64,000 bases of DNA from Bacillota bacterium (lineage in GTDB: Bacteria; Bacillota; Dethiobacteria; DTU022): positions 179,136-243,135 of the forward strand of contig JAWSUE010000001.1 in the NCBI GenBank assembly GCA_033549065.1, read 5' to 3'. Below the pieces are notes generated by a model. The model had not been told where the DNA came from and ran no database searches. It saw only the letters and a list, made by a program, of their open reading frames with translations. Positions 1 through 54,395 of the stretch are shown here, piece after piece. Both the position numbers and the translations under genes were made by a program. Position 1 is the first letter of the stretch. Each line of letters begins with the position of its first letter.

Positions 1-2130
1 TTGTTGAGCTAATACTGTTGTAGGAACTAGTACTGCTACCTGTTTTCCTTCCATAATAACTTTAAAAGCTGCACGCATAGCCACTTCCGTTTTTCCATAA
101 CCTACATCACCACAAATCAATCGATCCATAGGATGGCTCTTTTCCAGATCCAGCTTAACCTCTTGAATAGCACGCATTTGATCCTGTGTCTCATCATAAG
201 GAAAATACGACTCAAAATCCTGCTGCCACGGATGATCAGGACCGTACTGATAACCTTCAGTAGCTTCTCTGGCAGCATAGAGCGCCAGCAATTCACCCGC
301 CAGTTCTTCAACCGAACGGTGAACCCTGCTCTTCAATCGCTGCCATTCGCTGCCGCCTAAACTATGCAGCCGTGGCGGAGGTGCATCTCCTCCCGAATAT
401 TTTTGGATTAGCTGAACCTGTTCCACAGGGATGAAAAGCTTATCAGTTCCCCTGTATTTTAAATGAAGGTAATCACGTTTTACTCCGCTTATTTCCAAGG
501 TTTTTATCCCTTGGTACTTTCCTATACCATGCTGTTCGTGAACCACATAGTCACCAGGTTCAAGTTCACGATAATTACTTAAACGTATTCCCCCATAATC
601 GGCCGGTTTTCGCTTCTTTTTATGTCGGGGAAGCAAATGTTGGGTGGAAATAACTGCTAATTTTATACTGGAAATAAGAAAACCTTCGTCAAGATTTGCT
701 ACGCGTATCGGTAGTGGTTCTGTCAAATAGCTTTTTAAACCTTTACTCTCCTGCTCCGATGTTGCACAAATTATTACCTTAAATCCTTCTTTCTTAAAGG
801 TCTGGTAGTCGCTGTTAAAAAGCTGCCATTGCCCGTGATAATAGGGGATACTTTTACTTTCGATACAGTAATCCTCACTTGTTTGTAGTAAATTTTTCCC
901 CTCCGGAAATAATGAAAAACTTACCAGGGGACAGGATATATTGGTATAAAGCTCATTTTCTTTCAGAATAAAATCTCTTCCGGCAGCCAATTCCAGAAGT
1001 TCAATAATCTTGTTAACACTATGGTCATTGATCTCATTTCGTAATGTATTCCCTTTTTCAAAGAGGATTCCAGGTTCCTCTACTAAAACCAGGTAATCTG
1101 AGTCGATATAATCAAGCAGCGAAGAACCGTTTCCATAAAAGTAAGGGAAATAAATACTCAGCATATCCAGGCCATCAGGTTGCATTAACCGTTCCAGATG
1201 ACTTTCAACCTGTTGATTTAAAAAAGAAGCTGATTCATGATCTCCCCGCCTGCGAAGGTTGGCAGCCGCTTTGTCAAGTTTCAGGCGAATCTCTTTCTCG
1301 CCGGTTTCCTTTAGATCTCCTGAAATAATAAGTTCGCTGGCCGGTAGTATTAAAAGTTGATCTACATTTTTTGTTGAACGCTGGGTAAGGGGATCATAAT
1401 TCCTAATAGATTCAACCAGGTTATCATAAAGCGCTAGACGATGAGGGTGGTTTCGTCCGGTTGGATAAATATCTATGATATCGCCCCTTACGCTGAACTG
1501 ACCTCCTTTTTCTGCTAAAGTAACTCTTTCATAACCAAGATCAACCAATTGAGCAATCAGATTTTCCCGGTTGAGAGTGGAACCCGGTTTAACTTCTATT
1601 GCCAGGCTGTACCAAATCTCCGGAGGGATAACCCTGGTAAGCAGTGCCTGGTTTGTTGTTACATATACACCGGAGCCCCTGTTCCCAAGCCACTCGTAAA
1701 ATCCCATTCGCATTGCTGAATATTCTTCACTGCGAGATATTACTTCACTGCTTATGAATAACTCTCTGGAAGGTAATGATCTGACTTTGCCTGGTAAAAA
1801 TACAGATAAATCGGCATACATCTTTTCTGCACGGGCATTATCAGCAGTGATCACAATAGCAGGTTTTTCATTGTTTAATACCAATGCTGCCATGAAAAAT
1901 GCTCTTGCGCTACCATCAAGACCACTAACTGACAACCTGGTTTTGTTGTTATTAGTCAACTTAGTTATAATCTCATTGAAGAGTTCAAGGTCTCTCCATA
2001 ACCCTAATATGTCATTAAACAATAGAAAGTTCTCTCCGTTTCCTGCTGATATGAGTACAACAAAAGAAAGGGGATTTTTTATCCCCCAGGCAAGTGAATA
2101 AATTATATCTTTCGGGCCAGTTAGAGTCAA
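1..2130 (-). CDS. mfd: Transcription-repair coupling factor Mfd, partial (N-terminal ~700 aa; C-terminus runs off the window start). It is absent from the ORF track because no stop codon falls inside the window.
   Basis: My own minus-strand translation gives the N-terminal '...LSVSGLDGSARAFFMAALVLNNEKPAIVITADNARAEKM...' and, near nt 90-150, the helicase motif I 'LICGDVGYGKTEVAMRAAFKVIMEGKQVAVLVPTTVLAQQ'. It sits next to pth, as mfd does in Bacillus. The start is probably TTG at 2130, with an in-frame TAA at 2138-2140; the start is uncertain. Confidence 0.75.
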   Translation of the reverse strand, partial: MTLTGPKDIIYSLAWGIKNPLSFVVLISAGNGENFLLFNDILGLWRDLELFNEIITKLTNNNKTRLSVSGLDGSARAFFMAALVLNNEKPAIVITADNARAEKMYADLSVFLPGKVRSLPSRELFISSEVISRSEEYSAMRMGFYEWLGNRGSGVYVTTNQALLTRVIPPEIWYSLAIEVKPGSTLNRENLIAQLVDLGYERVTLAEKGGQFSVRGDIIDIYPTGRNHPHRLALYDNLVESIRNYDPLTQRSTKNVDQLLILPASELIISGDLKETGEKEIRLKLDKAAANLRRRGDHESASFLNQQVESHLERLMQPDGLDMLSIYFPYFYGNGSSLLDYIDSDYLVLVEEPGILFEKGNTLRNEINDHSVNKIIELLELAAGRDFILKENELYTNISCPLVSFSLFPEGKNLLQTSEDYCIESKSIPYYHGQWQLFNSDYQTFKKEGFKVIICATSEQESKGLKSYLTEPLPIRVANLDEGFLISSIKLAVISTQHLLPRHKKKRKPADYGGIRLSNYRELEPGDYVVHEQHGIGKYQGIKTLEISGVKRDYLHLKYRGTDKLFIPVEQVQLIQKYSGGDAPPPRLHSLGGSEWQRLKSRVHRSVEELAGELLALYAAREATEGYQYGPDHPWQQDFESYFPYDETQDQMRAIQEVKLDLEKSHPMDRLICGDVGYGKTEVAMRAAFKVIMEGKQVAVLVPTTVLAQQ

Positions 2131-2363
2131 CCAGGTTTAATGAACTCCAATATAACCAGCTTAACCATTCCTTTTTACGTCTGACATGTGACCTTTATAC
2201 GTCATTTCTATGCCCGCATTTTTAATCAAATATGTTGCTTAACACGCGCTATATGAGAGCTTTATAAAAATATTAAATTTCTTTTTATCCGGATCACCTT
2301 TGAAACTCGTGATTTATGCTAATCAGATTAAAAATATATTTTATAGTTTTCTGTCACAAATGT

Positions 2364-2379
2364 TGGCATGAAGATTGCT
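2364..2379 (+). promoter_or_regulatory. Sigma-54 (-24/-12) promoter TGGCAT-N5-TTGCT upstream of the FNT gene
   Basis: The sequence tGGCATgaagaTTGCt fits TGGCAC-N5-TTGCW with GG/GC spacing exactly right, about 65 nt upstream of ATG 2445. A sigma-54 activator is encoded 4 kb downstream. Confidence 0.6.
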
Positions 2380-2444: not shown

Positions 2445-3533
2445 ATGGCTGAGAAATGTTCATTCTGGAACGAGTACGATTCGATTGCAGGGCATGTTTG
2501 CTACTGTGAATTAGCTGCCTTCAACAGACCGGTAAATACCAACTTTCTGTCTGCAATCGGCTGTACTCCTGAAAAACGAAAGGAGTGCATGCTGAAGATG
2601 GAAAATGTGACCGGCATTGGAGTTGTACCTGAGGAACTCCCGGTTCCGGTATCTGTCCCGGCGGCAACTACACCCGTAACTTCATGCGATACCCCGGCAG
2701 AAATTGCCAGATCCGTTGTCGGTGTAGCTCAGAAAAAAGCTGCTACCGCGCCGGTTTCATTGATTATGCTTGCTCTTCTGGCTGGAGCATACATTGCGCT
2801 TGGAGCAGTTATGTTCACCATCATCACCAATGATCTTGCTGTATATATTGGTGATGGTCTTAGTCGTTTGGTCGGTGGCATATCTTTCTCCATCGGTCTG
2901 ATTCTGGTAATCCTCGGAGGGGCTGAACTTTTTACAGGAAATAACCTGTTGGTCACAGGATATCTGGATAAAAAAGTGAGCGGCAGGCAGGTTTTGAACA
3001 ATTGGGTATGGGTTTACCTGTTCAACTTTGCCGGAGCACTATTAGTGGTTGCCTTATTCTACTTCTCAGGCATCTGGAAAGCTAACGACGGCAGCATCGC
3101 TCTCAGGGTCATCAATATCGCTTATGCCAAATCAACTCTCACCTGGGGTGAGGCGCTTTTCAGAGGCATACTGTGCAATTGGCTGGTCTGCCTCGCAGTT
3201 TGGTTATCCCTGGCAGGAAAAGATGCCATAAGCAAGATCCTGGGAATAATGATTCCGATTACAGCATTTGTCGCTGCTGGATTTGAGCACTCAATTGCCA
3301 ACATGTATTTTGTCCCAATGGGTATTATGGTTAAAAACAATATATTTATTCAGGGACTGGTTTCTCCGGCAATACTGCAGTCTATCAGCTGGCAGTCATT
3401 TTTCCTGAACAACCTGATTCCCGTTACTATAGGCAACATCATAGGTGGAGTTGTTTTTGTTGCTGTTGCTTACTGGACATGTTACCTTCGCCCGACCATG
3501 TCAGATAAACTAATCACCAATGGAAGATCCTAG
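2445..3533 (+). CDS. Formate/nitrite transporter (FNT) family channel with a ~70-aa N-terminal cysteine-rich cytoplasmic domain plus a Pro/Thr linker
   Basis: FNT signature 'AAGFEHSIANMYFVP' and six TM segments are present. The N-terminus 'CSFWNEYDSIAGHVCYC...GCTPEKRKEC..MENVTGIGVVPEE' is paralogous to ORF 3575-3838. A strong RBS 'aaaggagg' precedes the start. Confidence 0.8.
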   Translation: MAEKCSFWNEYDSIAGHVCYCELAAFNRPVNTNFLSAIGCTPEKRKECMLKMENVTGIGVVPEELPVPVSVPAATTPVTSCDTPAEIARSVVGVAQKKAATAPVSLIMLALLAGAYIALGAVMFTIITNDLAVYIGDGLSRLVGGISFSIGLILVILGGAELFTGNNLLVTGYLDKKVSGRQVLNNWVWVYLFNFAGALLVVALFYFSGIWKANDGSIALRVINIAYAKSTLTWGEALFRGILCNWLVCLAVWLSLAGKDAISKILGIMIPITAFVAAGFEHSIANMYFVPMGIMVKNNIFIQGLVSPAILQSISWQSFFLNNLIPVTIGNIIGGVVFVAVAYWTCYLRPTMSDKLITNGRS

Positions 3534-3574
3534 CTGCAGACAGCCCTGGATTTAAAAGGTGAGGAGGGAGTATC

Positions 3575-3838
3575 ATGAAAAAGATGGTTAACTGCACAAA
3601 TTGGAAAGAGTACCAGAGTTTGAACGGTTGGGTTATGTTCTGCAGTGCCGGGGCTTACGGCCGCAAGTTAACCGTTGAAGAAGCAAGAAGCTGCGGCTGC
3701 ACCGAATTGCAGAGGCAAAAATGCAAGAAATTGATGGAAAACAATGTAGGCTTTGGCCTTGTTCCTGAAGTAAATGAAGAATCTTTTGTTCTCGAAAAAC
3801 ATACCCACCTAGAACCGATTCTTACCAGGAAGCATTAA
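3575..3838 (+). CDS. Small standalone Cys-rich protein, paralog of the FNT N-terminal domain
   Basis: Four Cys align between the two copies. The conserved pattern is C-x2-W-x-EY-x-S-x2-G-x-V-x2-C ... GCT-x-E-x-R-x2-C-x-K-x-MEN-x2-G-x-G-x-VPE. RBS is GGAGGG. Confidence 0.6.
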   Translation: MKKMVNCTNWKEYQSLNGWVMFCSAGAYGRKLTVEEARSCGCTELQRQKCKKLMENNVGFGLVPEVNEESFVLEKHTHLEPILTRKH

Positions 3839-3875
3839 TATTATGAAGATTAGCCCATTGACATTATTTAATAAA

Positions 3876-3908
3876 GAGCCCCGGCTTTTCTTTCGGGGCT
3901 TTTTATTT
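3876..3908 (+). terminator. Rho-independent terminator after the small Cys-rich gene
   Basis: GC hairpin GCCCCGG...CGGGGC followed by TTTTTATTT. Confidence 0.6.
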
Positions 3909-3990: not shown

Positions 3991-5160
3991 ATGTATATCA
4001 GCAAATTTGTGACCCCGGAAATAATCTTTGGCACCGGCTCATTAAACCAAATAGGCGAATGCTGCAGCCGGCTCGGTTCATCGAAGGTATTTCTTGTTGC
4101 CGACCAGGGAGTTGTCCGCTGCGGGTGGGTTAATAAAGCTCTATCCTTTCTAGAGGAAGCCGGCATGGAATACCGTATATGGTCGGATTTTTCAGCCAAC
4201 CCCCGCGACTACGAAGTTGAAGATGGGCTTAAGCAGTATATGGAAGCAGGCTGTGATGCAGTTTTAGCAATCGGCGGGGGAAGCGCTGTCGATGCAGCCA
4301 AAGCGGTTGCAACACTGTCGACAAACAAGGGGAAAATCCACGACTTTGAAGGCATTGACATGATTGATGAACCACTGCCGCCATTGATAGTTGTTTCCTC
4401 TACGGCCGGTTCTGGTGCAGAAGTATCCCAGTTTGCCATAATTTCTGATAGCCACAGAAAGATTAAGATGACTATTATTTCCAAATCACTGGTCCCTGAT
4501 ATAGCAATTTCTGATCCTCTGATTTTATCTACGATCAACAGCAAGGTAACCGCCCACACCGGTATGGAGGCATTGAGCCATGCAATTGAAGCCTATTTAT
4601 CACTGGCTGCAACTGATATAACTGATATTCATGCTCTTCAGTCCATTAAACTAATCTCTTCAAATCTTCGTTCTTCGGTAGCCAGCCAGGTCGATGAGGC
4701 AGCTAAAATCGCCATGGCACAAGCCAGTATCCATGCCGGTATTGCCTTTTCCAATGCAGTGCTTGGCCTGACACATGCCATGACGCATCAGGTGGGTGGT
4801 CTTTTAGACCTTCCAATCGGAACTATCAGCGCTGTTTTACTTCCCTATGTGATGCGCTTTAACCTGTTAGCCTGTGTAGACAAGTACGCATCCATAGCGA
4901 GGGCTATGGGAGCACAGACCGAGCATTTATCAAAAAGAGAAGCAGCTGAAAAAGCGATCGAACTTGTACAGGAATTGTCACATGATGTAGGCATACCTGC
5001 CGGATTGGCAGATCTGGGATTACCTGAGAAATCTATCCCGGAACTGAGCAGGAATGCCATGAACGATGCGTGCTTTATAACAAATCCCCGCGATGCAGAC
5101 GAAGAAGATATTGCCAGTATATTCCATGCAGCGCTTGAAATGCCTGGAGGTTTATGCTAA
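3991..5160 (+). CDS. Iron-containing (group III) alcohol dehydrogenase
   Basis: 'GGGSAVDAAKAVA' NAD-binding motif and His-rich metal-site region 'THAMTHQVGG', typical of Fe-ADH (FucO/EutG/DhaT-like). Confidence 0.8.
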   Translation: MYISKFVTPEIIFGTGSLNQIGECCSRLGSSKVFLVADQGVVRCGWVNKALSFLEEAGMEYRIWSDFSANPRDYEVEDGLKQYMEAGCDAVLAIGGGSAVDAAKAVATLSTNKGKIHDFEGIDMIDEPLPPLIVVSSTAGSGAEVSQFAIISDSHRKIKMTIISKSLVPDIAISDPLILSTINSKVTAHTGMEALSHAIEAYLSLAATDITDIHALQSIKLISSNLRSSVASQVDEAAKIAMAQASIHAGIAFSNAVLGLTHAMTHQVGGLLDLPIGTISAVLLPYVMRFNLLACVDKYASIARAMGAQTEHLSKREAAEKAIELVQELSHDVGIPAGLADLGLPEKSIPELSRNAMNDACFITNPRDADEEDIASIFHAALEMPGGLC

Positions 5161-6332
5161 TGGTTATTCAAAGTAAAAAAATATTAATTGAAAAATTAAC
5201 CGGGGTTCATAGCTCTAAGAAATCTTATTATGTGGCCCTGAAAAATAAAATAAACGAGTTGCTCGAAATCAAACGTGACTGGGAAGTCACCTTTTCTGCA
5301 GTAACCGATTTGCTTGTATTTATCAACAACAATTACGAAATACAGCGGGTAAATCAAGCTGCAATTGATTTTTTTACCATGCCGGAAAGCGATATAATAG
5401 GTTCAAAATGTTATCATCTTTTTTATGGGCGTGATACAAAATGTACCCCCTGCCTTGGGGATCAGGTATTAAGCTCTCAAAAGACATCATATTTACAATC
5501 GAGAACCCGGTTTAACCGTGTTCTCGATATTTTTGCTTACCCTGCATTTACAGAACTTTTTGAACCTTACGGCGTTACATACTATGCAAAGGATGTAACC
5601 CGTCTCGTCGACTCCATAAAATTAGTATCAATGGGTGAGATGTCTGCCGGTGTGGCACATGAGTTAAATAGCCCTTTAACTGCTATAGTTGGCAACTCAC
5701 AACTGCTGCTGCGGGAAACTCCTGAAGATAATCCACAATATCAACTAATCAAGGATATCCACAGTAGTGGCATAAGGTGTCAGCGAATTATTAAGAACCT
5801 GCTGACATTCTCCAGGCAGGAGGAGCTAAATTTCGAAGAAGTGGACATTAACACAGTTGTTGACAGCGCCCTTGCCCTGGCTGCATTTCAAATAGAAAAG
5901 AGCAAGATCCGGTTGGCAGTCAATAAAACTGCCGGTATACCAATGTTAACAGGCAGTCCTAACGGACTCGAACAGATAATTGTAAACCTCCTTCTTAATG
6001 CGAAGGATGCTGTTGAAGAAAAATTGAATAATGAAGGGAAAGGAGCAAAAGGAAAAATTGCTATTTCTACTAGAATTCACCCGGAAGGCGAACTGGTAAT
6101 AATCGATATAAAAGACAACGGCAGTGGGATTGCTGAAGAATATATTCCCCAGATCTTTAATCCATTTTATACCACTAAAAAAAGCGGCAAGGGAACCGGA
6201 CTCGGATTATCTGTGAGCCTCGGCATCGCCCAGGCACACGGCGGTTTTATCGATGTTGATACTGCTGTTGGCGAAGGAAGCACATTCAGTTTGATTCTGC
6301 CACTGCACAAAACAGAAAAAAACAACATTTAA
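5154..6332 (+). CDS. Cytoplasmic PAS-domain sensor histidine kinase (NtrB-like)
   Basis: No TM segment. PAS-like region with 'CYHLFYGRDTKCTPC'. H-box 'AGVAHELNSPLTAI'. HATPase N/G boxes 'NLLLNAKDA','DNGSGI','GTGLGLS'. Confidence 0.8.
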   Translation: MLMVIQSKKILIEKLTGVHSSKKSYYVALKNKINELLEIKRDWEVTFSAVTDLLVFINNNYEIQRVNQAAIDFFTMPESDIIGSKCYHLFYGRDTKCTPCLGDQVLSSQKTSYLQSRTRFNRVLDIFAYPAFTELFEPYGVTYYAKDVTRLVDSIKLVSMGEMSAGVAHELNSPLTAIVGNSQLLLRETPEDNPQYQLIKDIHSSGIRCQRIIKNLLTFSRQEELNFEEVDINTVVDSALALAAFQIEKSKIRLAVNKTAGIPMLTGSPNGLEQIIVNLLLNAKDAVEEKLNNEGKGAKGKIAISTRIHPEGELVIIDIKDNGSGIAEEYIPQIFNPFYTTKKSGKGTGLGLSVSLGIAQAHGGFIDVDTAVGEGSTFSLILPLHKTEKNNI

Positions 6333-6388: not shown

Positions 6389-7897
6389 ATGACCAGGAAA
6401 GCAAAATTCTTCATTGTCGATGATGAACGGGAAGTATGCAATTTTTTCAGTTATCTTCTTCACCAAAAAGGCCATGATGTTGTAACTGCAACATCAGGAG
6501 TAGAAGCTACTGCAAAACTTAAAGAGCATAAATTTGATACTGCCCTCGTTGATTTAAAGCTGCCTGATGCAAATGGGCTTGATATTCTGAGAGAAATCAA
6601 GAAGAATCAACCCGACTGCGAAGTGATAATTATAACCGGTTATTCAACCGTTAAATCGGCTGTAGAAGCTATTCAGCTTGGCGCCTTTGATTATGTGGAA
6701 AAACCATTCGCCGATATTGAGGAAATGGAAAATTTACTGGAACGTTCATTGAACGTAAGAGAAGACACAGAAAAATTATTTCTTGAACAGCAGGAGCTTG
6801 GATTTATAATCGGGAAAAGCCACCGGATGATTAACCTGATATCTGCTGCTCAAAAAATCGCAAAAAAAAATATAACGGTTTTGATCCAGGGAGAAACAGG
6901 AACCGGCAAAGAAGTTCTGGCCAGATACATACATTCCGTCAGCCACCGTACTGATCGTCCATTTCTCGCTTTTAACTGCGGTGCATTTACAGAAACCCTG
7001 CTCGAAAGTGAGCTTTTCGGACACGAAAAGGGATCATTTACCGGGGCAACACACAAGAAAAAAGGCATTTTTGAACTGGCCCATAAAGCAACATTATTTC
7101 TTGATGAAATTGATTCGGCCAGTCCGGCTATTCAGATTAAACTGCTCCGGGTACTTGAAACTGGAGAATTCCTCAGGGTTGGCGGGGAAGAAATGTGCAA
7201 GGTTGATGTCAGAATTATTACAGCTACTAATGCAAATCTGGCGCAAAAAGTTGCAAACAATGAGTTCAGGGAAGATCTTTTCTACCGCCTCGATGTCGCA
7301 TCTCTTCATATACCACCCCTTCGTGAAAGACCTGAGGACATTGAGCTGTTTATTGATTACTTCCTGGACAAAGAATCCCAATTAAAACAAATACCTATGA
7401 AAAAATTCTCTACTGAAGCTATTGAACTGATAAAAAAACATGATTGGCCGGGAAATATCCGGGAGCTCTCAAACACTGTTGCCCAGTCACTACTGCTCAG
7501 CAAAGGATCACTTATTGAGGTTGAAGATCTTCCGGAAAGAATCAGCAGATGTCTACCGGAACAGGCACCCGATAAGGCATATGATGACCCTTCTGCTGCC
7601 GGAAAACAATTCGAATCATTTATATCTGTTGATTCCGAAGGTGCAAATCTGGCAGAACAGTTAATTAAGTTCGAGAATATACTCTTTAAGACTATAAATT
7701 ACCGGAGAGGCTTTAATTTTGAGCTTTTCAGTAATGAAATAAACTGTTGGCGGGATAACTTGATGGCAAAAATCATTGAAAATGCACTTGAAGATACTTA
7801 CGGAAATCAGGTTAAAGCAGCTCAATTGCTGGGCATAACTCCCCGTGCACTAAGATACCATCTGCAAAAACCAAAAAATTCGTCGACCCGCAGATAG
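6389..7897 (+). CDS. Sigma-54-dependent response regulator (NtrC family: REC + AAA+ + Fis HTH)
   Basis: REC 'FFIVDDE...VDLKLPD'. Walker A 'GETGTGKE'. GAFTGA-type 'EKGSFTGA'. C-terminal HTH 'AAQLLGITPRALRYHLQK'. Confidence 0.85.
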   Translation: MTRKAKFFIVDDEREVCNFFSYLLHQKGHDVVTATSGVEATAKLKEHKFDTALVDLKLPDANGLDILREIKKNQPDCEVIIITGYSTVKSAVEAIQLGAFDYVEKPFADIEEMENLLERSLNVREDTEKLFLEQQELGFIIGKSHRMINLISAAQKIAKKNITVLIQGETGTGKEVLARYIHSVSHRTDRPFLAFNCGAFTETLLESELFGHEKGSFTGATHKKKGIFELAHKATLFLDEIDSASPAIQIKLLRVLETGEFLRVGGEEMCKVDVRIITATNANLAQKVANNEFREDLFYRLDVASLHIPPLRERPEDIELFIDYFLDKESQLKQIPMKKFSTEAIELIKKHDWPGNIRELSNTVAQSLLLSKGSLIEVEDLPERISRCLPEQAPDKAYDDPSAAGKQFESFISVDSEGANLAEQLIKFENILFKTINYRRGFNFELFSNEINCWRDNLMAKIIENALEDTYGNQVKAAQLLGITPRALRYHLQKPKNSSTRR

Positions 7898-7925: not shown

Positions 7926-8753
7926 TTACCGGTGAACCGGATATGAACCGAGCAGCTTTAAAAAGGGAACAGCCCCTTCAATGCTCTTCCATAATTCTTC
8001 TCTTCCAGGTTCATTTCGGTGCCCTTCACAGTCTATAAAAAACAGCCAATCTCCGATTATCTGCCTTGAAGGACGAGATTCAATCCGGGTCAGGTTAATA
8101 TTACGCTCAGCAAAAAATCCTAAAATCTTGTACAGACTGCCGGCACCGTCGGGTATAGTCATAACCAGGGAAGTCTTGTCATTTCCTGTGGGAGGATGAT
8201 CAGCATGGGAAAGCACAATAAACCTGGTTTGGTTTTCTACAACATCCTGAATTCCTTCCTTTAAAATACAGAGATTAAATAGATCAGCTGCTCTTTTAGG
8301 AGCAATCGCAGCAGCATCCTGAAAACAGGAAACCAATCTGGCAGCAGCAGCAGTGCTCTCAACAGGGATAAGCTCAGCATGCTTGAATTTATTTTCAAGA
8401 AATCCAGCACACTGACCCAAAGCATGAGGATGAGAAATAACCTGTAGGATATCTTCAAATTTTATTTTTTCAACAGCCATCAGGCACTGCCTGATGGGAC
8501 AAATAATTTCATGACTGATATAAATCTCTGACAAACGCACCAGGTGGTCAAGAGTTGCCGCTATCCCCCCTTCTAGATTATTATCAAGAGGTACGATACT
8601 TTCTTCAACCTCTGAATCGACCACTGCTTTTATTACAGAAGGAATCGTTGGATATTCAATTAATTCCATATCTCTTTTACGACAATAGATCATAGCTGCT
8701 TCTTCGGAAAAAGTACCTCCCGGACCCAAAAAACCTAATTTTTTTCGTATCAA
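7926..8753 (-). CDS. pheA: Prephenate dehydratase (PDT + ACT domain)
   Basis: 'TRIESRPSR' ACT region and PDT-domain conservation. 275 aa. Confidence 0.75.
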   Translation of the reverse strand: MIRKKLGFLGPGGTFSEEAAMIYCRKRDMELIEYPTIPSVIKAVVDSEVEESIVPLDNNLEGGIAATLDHLVRLSEIYISHEIICPIRQCLMAVEKIKFEDILQVISHPHALGQCAGFLENKFKHAELIPVESTAAAARLVSCFQDAAAIAPKRAADLFNLCILKEGIQDVVENQTRFIVLSHADHPPTGNDKTSLVMTIPDGAGSLYKILGFFAERNINLTRIESRPSRQIIGDWLFFIDCEGHRNEPGREELWKSIEGAVPFLKLLGSYPVHR

Positions 8754-8754
8754 T

Positions 8755-9804
8755 TTATACCCTACCTTCCTTCTGAATACTATTCTGCGAAGGCATAGAT
8801 CTATTCATGGCAAGCGCAATCGGTGTTACGGCTTCCAGTAATTTCTCATAGTTTTCAGGGGTCAAAGACTGAGGGCCATCACACAAAGCTTCAGCAGGCT
8901 TGTGATGAACCTCTATCAATAAACCATCAGCTCCAGCTGCAACTGCCGCCTGAGAAAGGGGTGCCGCTAATCGCCAACTACCGCTTGAATGACAGGGATC
9001 TGCGATAACCGGTAGATGACTTAACTCTTTTGCCTGTGGTATTGCGCTGATATCAAGTGTGCTGCGGGTAGACGTTTCAAAAGTTCTAATTCCCCTTTCA
9101 CAAAGTATAACCTGAAAGTTATTTTCGGCAAGAATATACTCAGCTGCCATCAGCCATTCCTCCAGGGTGGCCGCAAGACCTCTTTTTAAAAGGACAGGTT
9201 TATTACTGCGGCCAGCTTCACGAAGCAGAGAGAAGTTTTGCATATTTCTGGCACCGATCTGGAGAATATCTGTATAGCATGCAACCATTTCCACCTCCTG
9301 GGGGTTTAACACTTCGGTAACAATTTTTAGACCGGTCTCCAGCCTGGCAGTTTCCAGCATTTTAAGGCCATCCAATTCCAGTCCCTGAAAACTGTAAGGT
9401 GAAGATCGAGGTTTAAAAGCACCCCCTCTGAGAACCTGGGCGCCTGCTGCTTTCACTAAACGGGCAATCGTTAAAAGTTGTTCTTCATTTTCCACTGCAC
9501 AAGGTCCAGCCATAAATATAAGTTCTTTTCCACCTATTTCGAGATCACCAATCTTGATCACACTATTAGTTTCTTTTGCCTGACGGCTTACCAGTTTGTA
9601 AGGAGCAGTTATCGGCACTACCCGTTCAACGCCAGCTAAAACTTCCAACCCGGTGGGGAATACTACCTTTTGTTCACCTACTGCACCAATTACTACCCTG
9701 CCCACACCTTGTATCCGGTGTGGCGAAAATCCCAATTCAACTAATTTTTCTTCAACATTCTCAACTTCTTTTTGAGCAGCTGACTGTTTCATTACAATAA
9801 TCAT
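8755..9804 (-). CDS. aroF: 3-deoxy-7-phosphoheptulonate (DAHP) synthase, type I-beta, with N-terminal regulatory domain
   Basis: 'GPCAVENEEQLL...LRGGAFKPRSSPYSFQG' DAHPS/KDO8PS-fold motifs. Abuts pheA. Confidence 0.75.
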   Translation of the reverse strand: MIIVMKQSAAQKEVENVEEKLVELGFSPHRIQGVGRVVIGAVGEQKVVFPTGLEVLAGVERVVPITAPYKLVSRQAKETNSVIKIGDLEIGGKELIFMAGPCAVENEEQLLTIARLVKAAGAQVLRGGAFKPRSSPYSFQGLELDGLKMLETARLETGLKIVTEVLNPQEVEMVACYTDILQIGARNMQNFSLLREAGRSNKPVLLKRGLAATLEEWLMAAEYILAENNFQVILCERGIRTFETSTRSTLDISAIPQAKELSHLPVIADPCHSSGSWRLAAPLSQAAVAAGADGLLIEVHHKPAEALCDGPQSLTPENYEKLLEAVTPIALAMNRSMPSQNSIQKEGRV

Positions 9805-9844: not shown

Positions 9845-10150
9845 CATCAATATAAATAATAAATAAAAAATCCGCCCTTTAAGGGACGGATTAAAATCCG
9901 CGGTACCACCCAAATTGATGATTATCCACTCAATAAGTACGGGCATAAGATTTAATTCTGCCGATACCCTCTCCCTGTAACGGGGAAGAACCGTTAACAC
10001 CTACTTTGCCTTATGAATATCCGGTTTTCAGTGCAAAACTTCGAAGGGAACTTCAACAAGCAGTTTCCCGGCCGGATTTTCAGCCATTGATCCAACCTCT
10101 CTGGAGAGTTGCTATGCTTGCCTACTTTCCTTCTGCATTGTTTTTTAAAT
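9845..10150 (-). promoter_or_regulatory. T-box riboswitch leader (probably Phe-responsive) upstream of aroF-pheA
   Basis: Minus-strand T-box sequence AAUUUGGGUGGUACCGCGG (9898-9916) is followed by a terminator hairpin AAUCCGUCCC-UUAAA-GGGCGGAUUUUUU (9865-9896). The upstream stem-I-like region contains GAAGUUCCCUUCGAAG with UUC codons. Confidence 0.7.
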
Positions 10151-33660: not shown

Positions 33661-33930
33661 AGGCCGTGCACCTGCCTTTGACCGGCAACCCCAGGCGCCT
33701 TCCAGGCAGTTAGCTCCAACCCGGCGCTCCCGTGGCACCCGCAAATACTCACTTACCGCTGCTTCCTTCCGGACCTGACGGGGTTCATAAGCTTGCGCCG
33801 CACGGGACCAGGCCTTCGACACCACTTACCCGGTGCTGACCCTAAAGCTGCACGACCGGGGGCAGGAATTCAACCCCGCTATAGCGGATTGCGGGTTCAG
33901 GGCACCGCTACCTCCCCGTCTAGCACGGCC
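33661..33930 (-). ncRNA. ffs: Signal recognition particle RNA (long Bacillus-type scRNA)
   Basis: Domain IV motif GUCAGGUCCGGAAGGAAGCAGC. Terminal helix GGCCGUGC / GCACGGCC. Overall collinear with B. subtilis scRNA. Conserved position upstream of dnaX. Confidence 0.8.
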
Positions 33931-33943
33931 AAACCAAAAAAAT

Positions 33944-34039
33944 TGGCGGAGAGAGAGGGATTCGAACCCTCGAGACAGGGTTTTGCCCCATCTACTCGCT
34001 TTCCAGGCGAGCGCCTTCGACCAACTCAGCCATCTCTCC
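33944..34039 (-). tRNA. tRNA-Ser (anticodon GGA), long variable arm
   Basis: Minus-strand GGAGAGAUGGCUGAGUUGG...CUCGCCUGGAAAGCGAG...GGUUCGAAUCCCUCUCUCUCCGCCA. CCA is encoded. Confidence 0.8.
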
Positions 34040-39998: not shown

Positions 39999-40089
39999 TG
40001 GCGGAGAGAGTGGGATTTGAACCCACGGTGCCTTTCGACACACACGATTTCGAGTCGTGCGCCTTCAGCCGGACTCGGCCATCTCTCCA
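39999..40089 (-). tRNA. tRNA-Ser (anticodon CGA)
   Basis: Minus-strand GGAGAGAUGGCCGAGUCCGG...CACGACUCGAAAUCGUG...GGUUCAAAUCCCACUCUCUCCGCCA. Confidence 0.8.
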
Positions 40090-54317: not shown

Positions 54318-54395
54318 TGGTGCGCCCGGCAGGATTTGAACCTGCGACCTGCTGATTCGAAGTCAGTCACTCTATCCGGGCTGAGCTACGGGCGC
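54318..54395 (-). tRNA. tRNA-Arg (anticodon UCG)
   Basis: Minus strand GCGCCCGUAGCUCAGCCCGGAUAGAGU...CUUCGAA...GGUUCAAAUCCUGCCGGGCGCACCA. Confidence 0.75.

Follow-up and report, generated by a model that had tools for sequence, protein, structure and literature searches.

A four-cysteine domain encoded both as an FNT channel fusion and as a free protein in a conserved cassette of Bacillota

Known channel partners and the two proteins of the window

AmtB is an oligomeric channel co-transcribed with a small soluble regulator, GlnK, which belongs to the PII proteins and responds to 2-oxoglutarate, ATP and uridylylation. FeoC, a small (~80-amino-acid) cytoplasmic protein with four cysteines, adjoins the Feo iron transporter and was proposed to be its regulator. 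In the FNT family of channels, gating in E. coli depends on an N-terminal helix and on pyruvate formate-lyase (PFL), a partner that many anaerobes do not have. The cytoplasmic N-terminal helix of FocA is needed for the translocation of formate and gates it via the partner PflB (PMC11841067). The present analysis concerns a stretch of 64,000 nucleotides from a Bacillota bacterium (assembly GCA_033549065.1, contig JAWSUE010000001.1, positions 179,136 to 243,135), here called the window. One open reading frame (ORF) of this window encodes an FNT channel preceded by a ~65-residue domain with four cysteines, referred to below as the Cys4 domain, and the next ORF encodes a free protein of 87 amino acids built from the same domain (Table 1).

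The locus shares with FocA–PflB a channel of the pentameric FNT type with a cytoplasmic N-terminus as regulatory handle, and the window protein keeps both the helix and the Thr/His pore motifs. It differs in that an additional folded Cys4 domain is placed covalently before the helix, and in that the part of the partner would be played by a small paralog of this domain and not by a glycyl-radical enzyme. The likeness to AmtB–GlnK lies in the combination of a small-solute channel with a co-transcribed small protein, which is thought to bind the cytoplasmic face and to regulate flux according to a metabolic signal. The two systems are, however, not related in sequence or fold, and the partner in the window is a Cys4 domain, a copy of which is also fused to the channel. 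As in the case of FeoC, the gene of a small cytoplasmic four-cysteine protein is linked to that of a membrane transporter. Channels that have a regulatory handle in the cytoplasm and act with a small partner are already known; here both parts are built from a domain family that had not been described.

Table 1. Features of the FNT locus and their positions in the window
Feature	Position	Strand	Remarks
Putative enhancer (upstream activating sequence), imperfect palindrome	2189..2204	+	TGACCTTTATACGTCA; consensus TGACG-N6-CGTCA, one mismatch
Sigma-54 (-24/-12) promoter	2364..2379	+	TGGCATgaagaTTGCT; TGGCAT-N5-TTGCT; 81 nt upstream of the FNT start codon
FNT-fusion ORF	2445..3533	+	362 amino acids
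Tethered Cys4 domain	2445..2639	+	FNT residues 1-65; Cys5, Cys21, Cys40, Cys48
Linker, FNT residues 66-82	2640..2690	+	Pro/Val/Thr-rich, ELPVPVSVPAATTPVTSC; ends at Cys81 (SCDTP)
FNT channel core	2691..3533	+	FocA-like N-terminal cytoplasmic helix (residues ~83-105); pore motifs ELFTGN, GFEHSIANM
Free 87-amino-acid Cys4 protein	3575..3838	+	domain in residues 1-66; Cys7, Cys23, Cys42, Cys50; variable acidic tail 67-87
Intrinsic terminator, hairpin and U-run	3870..3907	+	fold -21 kcal/mol, z=-5.1; 0/200 shuffles as stable
Iron-dependent alcohol dehydrogenase-like protein, nearest ErcA	3991..5160	+	Pfam Fe-ADH, ADH_Fe_C; 7-nt overlap with the kinase gene
Soluble PAS histidine kinase, AtoS-like	5154..6332	+	Pfam PAS_4, HisKA, HATPase_c; best NCBIfam match AtoS
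Sigma-54-dependent response regulator, AtoC/NtrC-like	6389..7897	+	Response_reg, Sigma54_activat, HTH_8

The original prediction, made from the letters of the window, held that a domain of ~65 amino acids is present twice, at the N-terminus of the FNT protein and in the 87-residue protein, and a direct comparison of the two proteins bears this out. Residues 5–63 of the FNT protein align without gaps with residues 7–65 of the free protein, 23 of the 59 positions being identical (39%), with E=1e-15 in this single BLASTP comparison, so that the paralogy is far beyond chance. The tethered domain was also found in a local profile search of the window, with 98 bits. Each paralog has one unshared fifth cysteine, C19 in the fusion and C40 in the free protein. 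C19 is a serine in 53% of the FNT fusions, and the extra cysteines are not conserved family-wide.

Residues 1–85 of the FNT protein have no Pfam assignment and are followed by a PF01226 core comprising residues 86–344 (E=3.3e-80, 269 bits versus a cut-off of 34.6). The protein also matches TIGR00790 (257.9 bits, cut-off 232.3), and similarity to the FocA models sets in at residues 83–90. The pore Thr/His motifs GAELFTGN and GFEHSIANM are both present in the translation. They correspond to T91 and H209 of E. coli FocA, the roles of which are described in PMC9380403.

The in-frame fusion of the Cys4 domain to the channel is genuine, since the window sequence contains no ATG, GTG or TTG in frame between the domain and the FNT core, a strong ribosome-binding site, AGGAGG (2431–2436), precedes the ATG at 2445 by 8 nt, and the Cys4–FNT reading frame is intact in 53 distinct orthologs despite a poorly conserved linker. 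Within this linker Cys81 is conserved in 75% of the FNT fusions, and the rest varies among orthologs. The two ORFs are separated by 41 nt, and the 87-residue ORF has its own ribosome-binding site, GAGGAGG, at 3561–3567. This small ORF is under strong purifying selection, with a nonsynonymous rate (dN) of 0.07–0.22, a saturated synonymous rate (dS) and dN/dS ≤0.05 where computable. Its product is predicted by AF2 to consist of a β-hairpin (residues 10–23) and two helices (residues 34–40 and 44–58).

The Cys4 family and its relation to described domains

The cysteines of the family are spaced as C-x15-C-x18-C-x7-C. In an alignment of 38 diverse homologs, with a mean column identity of 33%, no variation is seen at C7, G18, C23, A27, C42, M54 and G59, and conservation reaches 90% or more at G41, R47, C50 and P64. 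The sequence motif initially read from the two window copies holds in this alignment, and besides the four cysteines the domain has conserved W, Y, G, A, R, M, G and P residues. The supposed invariance of the cysteines was likewise upheld in a larger set: C7, C23, C42 and C50 are conserved at 99–100% in 113 distinct domain copies from the fetched loci, and the four cysteines are at least 98% conserved in the 53 distinct FNT-fused copies.

The family is rare, given that an exhaustive search with a hidden Markov model matched only 46 clusters at E≤1e-3 among 1.84 billion representative proteins. A word-indexed search returned 44 close homologs of the free protein of 67–90 amino acids, all of which, apart from one 67-residue fragment, have 82–90 amino acids. 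The few homologs that carry a name are hypothetical proteins from metagenome-assembled genomes (MAGs) of Bacillota, and the exact match to the 87-residue protein is a hypothetical protein of a MAG labelled “Bacillota bacterium”. The same type of search with the FNT N-terminal domain alone gave one match, and the fusions were recovered by the representative search and a genome scan. One match, P0085 (3404 amino acids, eight matching stretches), was discarded as spurious, being a repetitive cell-surface protein without the cysteine pattern.

Sequence searches placed no Pfam family above its gathering score in the window copies or in the 38 family members, and the window copies have no NCBIfam match. 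Neither single-sequence nor profile searches found a sequence match to the domain in the PDB, and the AF2 model of the free protein has no significant fold match there. The cysteines are not arranged in the paired CxxC (or CxxH) knuckles typical of zinc ribbons or treble clefs, as no CxxC is conserved in the 38 members or the 113 copies. The ferredoxin [4Fe-4S] motif CxxCxxCxxxCP is absent from both window copies and from the family consensus. The view that the domain is neither a CxxC zinc ribbon nor a ferredoxin, and that it has no Pfam name, stands after these searches. In the literature searched, neither FNT N-terminal cysteine domains nor the present cassette are described.

The only lead toward a named family was DUF2769 (PF10967), which gives weak matches in at least two and, by a summary count, three of the 38 members (E 0.026–0.047, 14.7–15.5 bits, below the gathering score of 22.8) and none in a Pfam search of the two window proteins. 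DUF2769 proteins are also small, have an anaerobe-rich distribution and share the local pattern CP-x-(Y/W)...(L/M)FC...GC. They differ in having eight invariant cysteines, including CxC and CxxC motifs, which the Cys4 domain does not have, and only three of the eight align with it. When the 38-member profile was compared with 15 genuine DUF2769 proteins, gathered with a query matching PF10967 at E 2e-20, hhalign gave a probability of 2.2% and an E-value of 0.022 over 34 columns, and membership was rejected.

It is therefore hardly credible that the domain belongs, as a divergent form, to one of the known cysteine-rich families (DUF2769, a zinc ribbon or a ferredoxin-like family), or that the similarity is due to chance or composition: the weak DUF2769 scores and the common pattern CP-x-(W/Y)...FC...GC are set against sub-threshold matches, the hhalign result, the lack of CxxC pairs and the strength of the paralogy, and DUF2769 is itself uncharacterised. 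The ~65-residue Cys4 domain is an unnamed, previously undescribed family, and as such deserves a database entry.

Pairing of free and tethered copies in two formate-related contexts

The genome scan, for which one genome per GTDB species was used and the cassette was mapped by phmmer, found 54 loci. All of these are in MAGs, which for the most part bear the labels Bacillota, Syntrophomonadaceae or Dethiobacteria, and a large number were obtained from soda-lake sediments and anaerobic digesters. Two cassette contigs (L051 and L062) are from bins labelled “uncultured Desulfovibrionaceae”, while all other labels are of the Bacillota type, which points to mis-binning or lateral transfer. The gene order is fixed, the FNT fusion being followed by the free copy, an iron-dependent alcohol dehydrogenase (Fe-ADH), a histidine kinase with a PAS or GAF-PAS sensor part and a sigma-54 response regulator. 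The same five-gene cassette is retained in the most divergent members, with 26–35% identity. A survey of the homologs had been suggested with regard to FNT channels and sigma-54 systems, and they are almost always linked to both.

The free and the tethered copies occur together with few exceptions. Among 59 distinct loci, the free copy directly follows the FNT fusion in the case of 48 of 52 fusion genes, and 46 of the 51 free copies have an FNT fusion before them. The remaining four fusions are second fusions placed directly after a free copy: in L031, L033, L035 and L043 the order is fusion, free copy, fusion and ADH, and the second fusion is more divergent and has no sigma-54 promoter of its own. 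The two types are also found joined in a natural tandem, P0045 (173 amino acids; ortholog at L050:1297–1809), in which a tethered-type half is followed by a free-type half, and by the Rosetta-stone argument this suggests that the two types interact. The free paralog was earlier thought to be a possible partner of the fusion, and the obligate co-occurrence of the two types and the tandem give this idea indirect support. In another protein, P0062 (199 amino acids, from a metagenome), a tethered-type domain is joined directly to the central AAA+ part of a sigma-54 regulator, as might be expected from a deletion of the intervening cassette genes or from mis-assembly.

A second context was found on three independent contigs (L064, L070 and L071). 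There a free copy of 66 amino acids is followed by a fusion of an XRE-type helix-turn-helix (HTH) to the Cys4 domain, with FdhA, the alpha subunit of a formate dehydrogenase (FDH), encoded directly downstream. The HTH_3 match of this fusion, with 42.9 bits, is above the cut-off. FdhA matches TIGR01591 with 870 bits (cut-off 666) and has an in-frame TGA within the selenocysteine motif CARL*HSATVAG, and genes for NAD(P)-linked β and γ subunits come next. The FNT cassette and the FDH loci, which are unrelated to each other and both concerned with formate, thus obey the same rule of one free and one tethered copy. A further and looser link to formate is a gene of the FdhD/NarQ family, for formate dehydrogenase maturation, which is located at L007:14999–15787, ~2 kb downstream of the cassette regulator.

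Formate is a key electron carrier of syntrophic and alkaliphilic anaerobes. The HTH fusions and the link to a selenocysteine-containing FDH broaden the reading of the domain from a channel gate to a portable regulatory module, and its presence on an HTH protein beside this FDH suggests a general, as yet unnamed, module for formate. The interpretation preferred here, tentatively and at slightly less than even confidence, is that the Cys4 domain is a portable module that responds to a signal, regulates the handling of formate and acts as a pair of free and tethered copies. In the channel, the tethered copy would be carried on a flexible Pro-rich linker before the FocA-like gating helix. Whether the free copy binds or is released would depend on the state of the four-cysteine site (through a metal, an Fe-S cluster or the chemistry of the thiols) or on a small ligand, for example formate, and this would reposition the N-terminal helix so that the pentameric channel opens or closes. 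Elsewhere the same pair would control the XRE-type HTH protein encoded before the selenocysteine formate dehydrogenase operon. A natural FNT channel that carries a Cys4 domain on its helix, with a co-transcribed free paralog, offers a compact and expressible system for studying regulated gating.

A further proposal, possible but doubtful, is that the family represents a new class of small-molecule or redox sensors, working as an obligate heterodimer of free and tethered copies and plugged onto the FNT gate as well as onto an XRE-type FDH regulator. Formate would be the most parsimonious ligand for such a sensor, and the site formed by the invariant Arg47, Met54 and cysteines is a candidate pocket. 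If this proposal is right, one fold would control formate flux both post-translationally and transcriptionally, and in the window protein an FNT channel would, for the first time, have a gate of its own that is controlled by a ligand or by redox state.

The same pairing data bear on the idea that the domain serves in docking and does not sense anything. The Cys4 fold, with a structural zinc, would then tether a cytoplasmic enzyme that makes or consumes formate (FDH or PFL), or some other partner, to the channel mouth, as in the case of PflB on FocA, and form a metabolon there, with the free copy as a subunit or a competitor of the complex. Such a role would be in keeping with the dependence of FocA on a protein partner at its N-terminus and with the FdhA genes of the second context, and four invariant cysteines are compatible with a purely structural metal site. 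A fusion to a DNA-binding HTH domain is nevertheless hard to square with a module used only for docking enzymes. The conserved FNT cassette contains no FDH or PFL gene, and both the pairing and the tandem point to self-association of the two types and not to the binding of a third protein. A docking role is on the whole unlikely.

Several points weigh against the regulatory-module interpretation. Heterodimerisation, gating, the signal and the cofactor (zinc, Fe-S cluster or thiol switch) are all parts of it that we infer. Formate is the presumed substrate of a channel that is FocA-like and yet scores below the FocA equivalog cut-offs (TIGR04060, 254.5 versus 290.1; NF008069, 208.7 versus 440), and FNT channels also transport nitrite, HS-, lactate and acetate. 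The ADH-like protein has the ErcA model (NF041833) as its best NCBIfam match, with 465.5 bits, under the cut-off of 550. All family data are from MAGs or metagenomes, and no cultured host is known. The AF2 model of the free protein is only moderately confident (pLDDT 77), and the single-sequence model of the tandem P0045 reaches a pLDDT of 35. The cores of the tethered type have a mean charge of -0.9 as opposed to +1.2 for the free type (p=5e-10), a difference that is complementary and weakly consistent with pairing, but the complementarity is modest and the two distributions overlap. Lastly, the C-terminal HTH_17-like segment of the free copy in one cassette (P0048; E 3e-5) scores 24.5, short of the Pfam gathering score of 27.

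Predicted sigma-54 control, the putative sensor unit and neighbouring genes

The promoter listed in Table 1 is the sole match to TGGYAY-N5-TYGCW on either strand of the window, and in 41 of the 44 loci for which upstream sequence is available the same element precedes the first FNT-fusion gene, at a distance of 52–83 nt. Together with the Sigma54_activat regulator of the cassette, it predicts a sigma-54-dependent operon. The window palindrome lies 175 nt upstream of the promoter, and both elements are contained in the intergenic region 2137–2444. Of 48 distinct upstream regions, 30 contain the palindrome with one mismatch at most, versus 0.4% of shuffles, and it lies mostly at -130 to -200 from the sigma-54 promoter. 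It is present ahead of FNT operons as well as ahead of orphan small genes and of the tandem gene. On the other side of the intergenic region a long ORF, divergent from the FNT operon (window 1–2136, minus strand), runs off the left end; it is read as Mfd/TRCF by its sequence and by synteny with L001.

The terminator after the free gene has a loop of more than 8 nt, was missed by a simple terminator scan and was found by direct folding. In 29 of 58 loci a hairpin of -10 kcal/mol or lower, together with a T-run, is present after the free gene. The position of the terminator in the window means that the regulated unit consists of exactly the FNT fusion and the free copy.

The same promoter also precedes genes outside the cassette. 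Five orphan free copies have it, all but one with the palindrome (one mismatch or none), and the tandem gene has both elements. The orphans adjoin genes for BipA, DUF432 and MscS channels; two of them (L004:7915–8178 and L059:3327–3512) are placed between BipA/TypA and a DUF432 protein with an MscS-type mechanosensitive channel, so that a channel is once more among the neighbours, and related orphan free copies were seen in L032, L034 and L037. At least three orphans and the tandem gene are from MAGs that also hold the full cassette. What emerges is a small predicted sigma-54 regulon with a TGACG-N6-CGTCA enhancer, the only recognisable outputs of which are Cys4-family proteins.

The gene for the Fe-ADH-like protein is present in the cassette of nearly all loci. 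In P. putida, a histidine kinase associates physically with an Fe-ADH, and the resulting complex senses alcohol (PMC12551699). As the ErcA-like ADH gene of the window overlaps the kinase gene and such a complex is known from Pseudomonas, the ADH-like protein, the kinase and the regulator are best read as a sensor unit. It resembles ErcA/ErcS (YiaY/YiaZ) of Pseudomonas in that an Fe-ADH-like gene, nearest to ErcA, overlaps the kinase gene. The differences are that the window kinase is a short soluble PAS (or GAF-PAS) protein, that the regulator is sigma-54-dependent, and that the output is an FNT channel with Cys4 proteins, as opposed to pyrroloquinoline quinone-dependent alcohol dehydrogenases. 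The sigma-54 promoter and the TGACG-N6-CGTCA enhancer would express the pair of channel and free copy, presumably driven by this adjacent unit. The PAS region of the kinase has a cysteine triad, C86-x10-C97-x2-C100 (residues 86–100, window 5409–5453, plus strand; KCYHLFYGRDTKCTPC), a candidate metal or redox site within the sensor itself.

Since the cassette is strictly conserved, one free copy has an HTH-like tail, and family genes within the lineage have the sigma-54 promoter and enhancer in common, the free protein might act in a feedback on this two-component system. It would tune expression by binding one of the components of the sensor unit (ADH-like protein, kinase or sigma-54 activator), and the copy on the FNT protein would report the abundance or activity of the channel. 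The pairs next to FDH speak against this, as neither a sigma-54 promoter nor a two-component system was found near them on the contigs L064, L070 and L071. Such a system can therefore not be essential to the basic role of the domain, and the feedback model is given little weight.

The Fe-ADH-like protein, translationally coupled to the kinase, also bears on a thiol-switch model, in which the cysteines of the domain would sense a reactive species in place of a metal or formate, by reacting either with aldehydes such as formaldehyde or, through persulfidation, with sulfide or polysulfide. An ADH-based sensor of aldehydes or alcohols would then be coupled to the export of formate by the FNT channel and its oxidation by FDH, or to the export of HS-. 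Aldehyde-reactive cysteines have precedents in FrmR and HxlR, and some FNT proteins are HS- channels. The hosts, labelled Dethiobacteria and Syntrophomonadaceae, come from sulfidic soda-lake sediments and digesters, and the cysteines are not arranged as classical metal knuckles, both of which would fit such a switch. Four invariant cysteines, however, exceed the needs of the known thiol switches, the link to FDH favours formate itself, and the channel is nearest to the FocA-type models, which makes a thiol switch of this kind very improbable.

Farther along the window, a T-box leader (Rfam RF00230; 102 bits, gathering score 93) is found at 9879–10147 on the minus strand, upstream of the minus-strand ORFs 8755–9804 and 7926–8753. 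These ORFs, read by eye, we take to be a 3-deoxy-D-arabino-heptulosonate 7-phosphate synthase and a prephenate dehydratase; if these identities hold, the T-box would control the synthesis of aromatic amino acids. The window also contains a large bacterial signal recognition particle RNA (33664–33928) and three tRNAs (33947–34039, 40002–40088 and 54321–54395), all on the minus strand.

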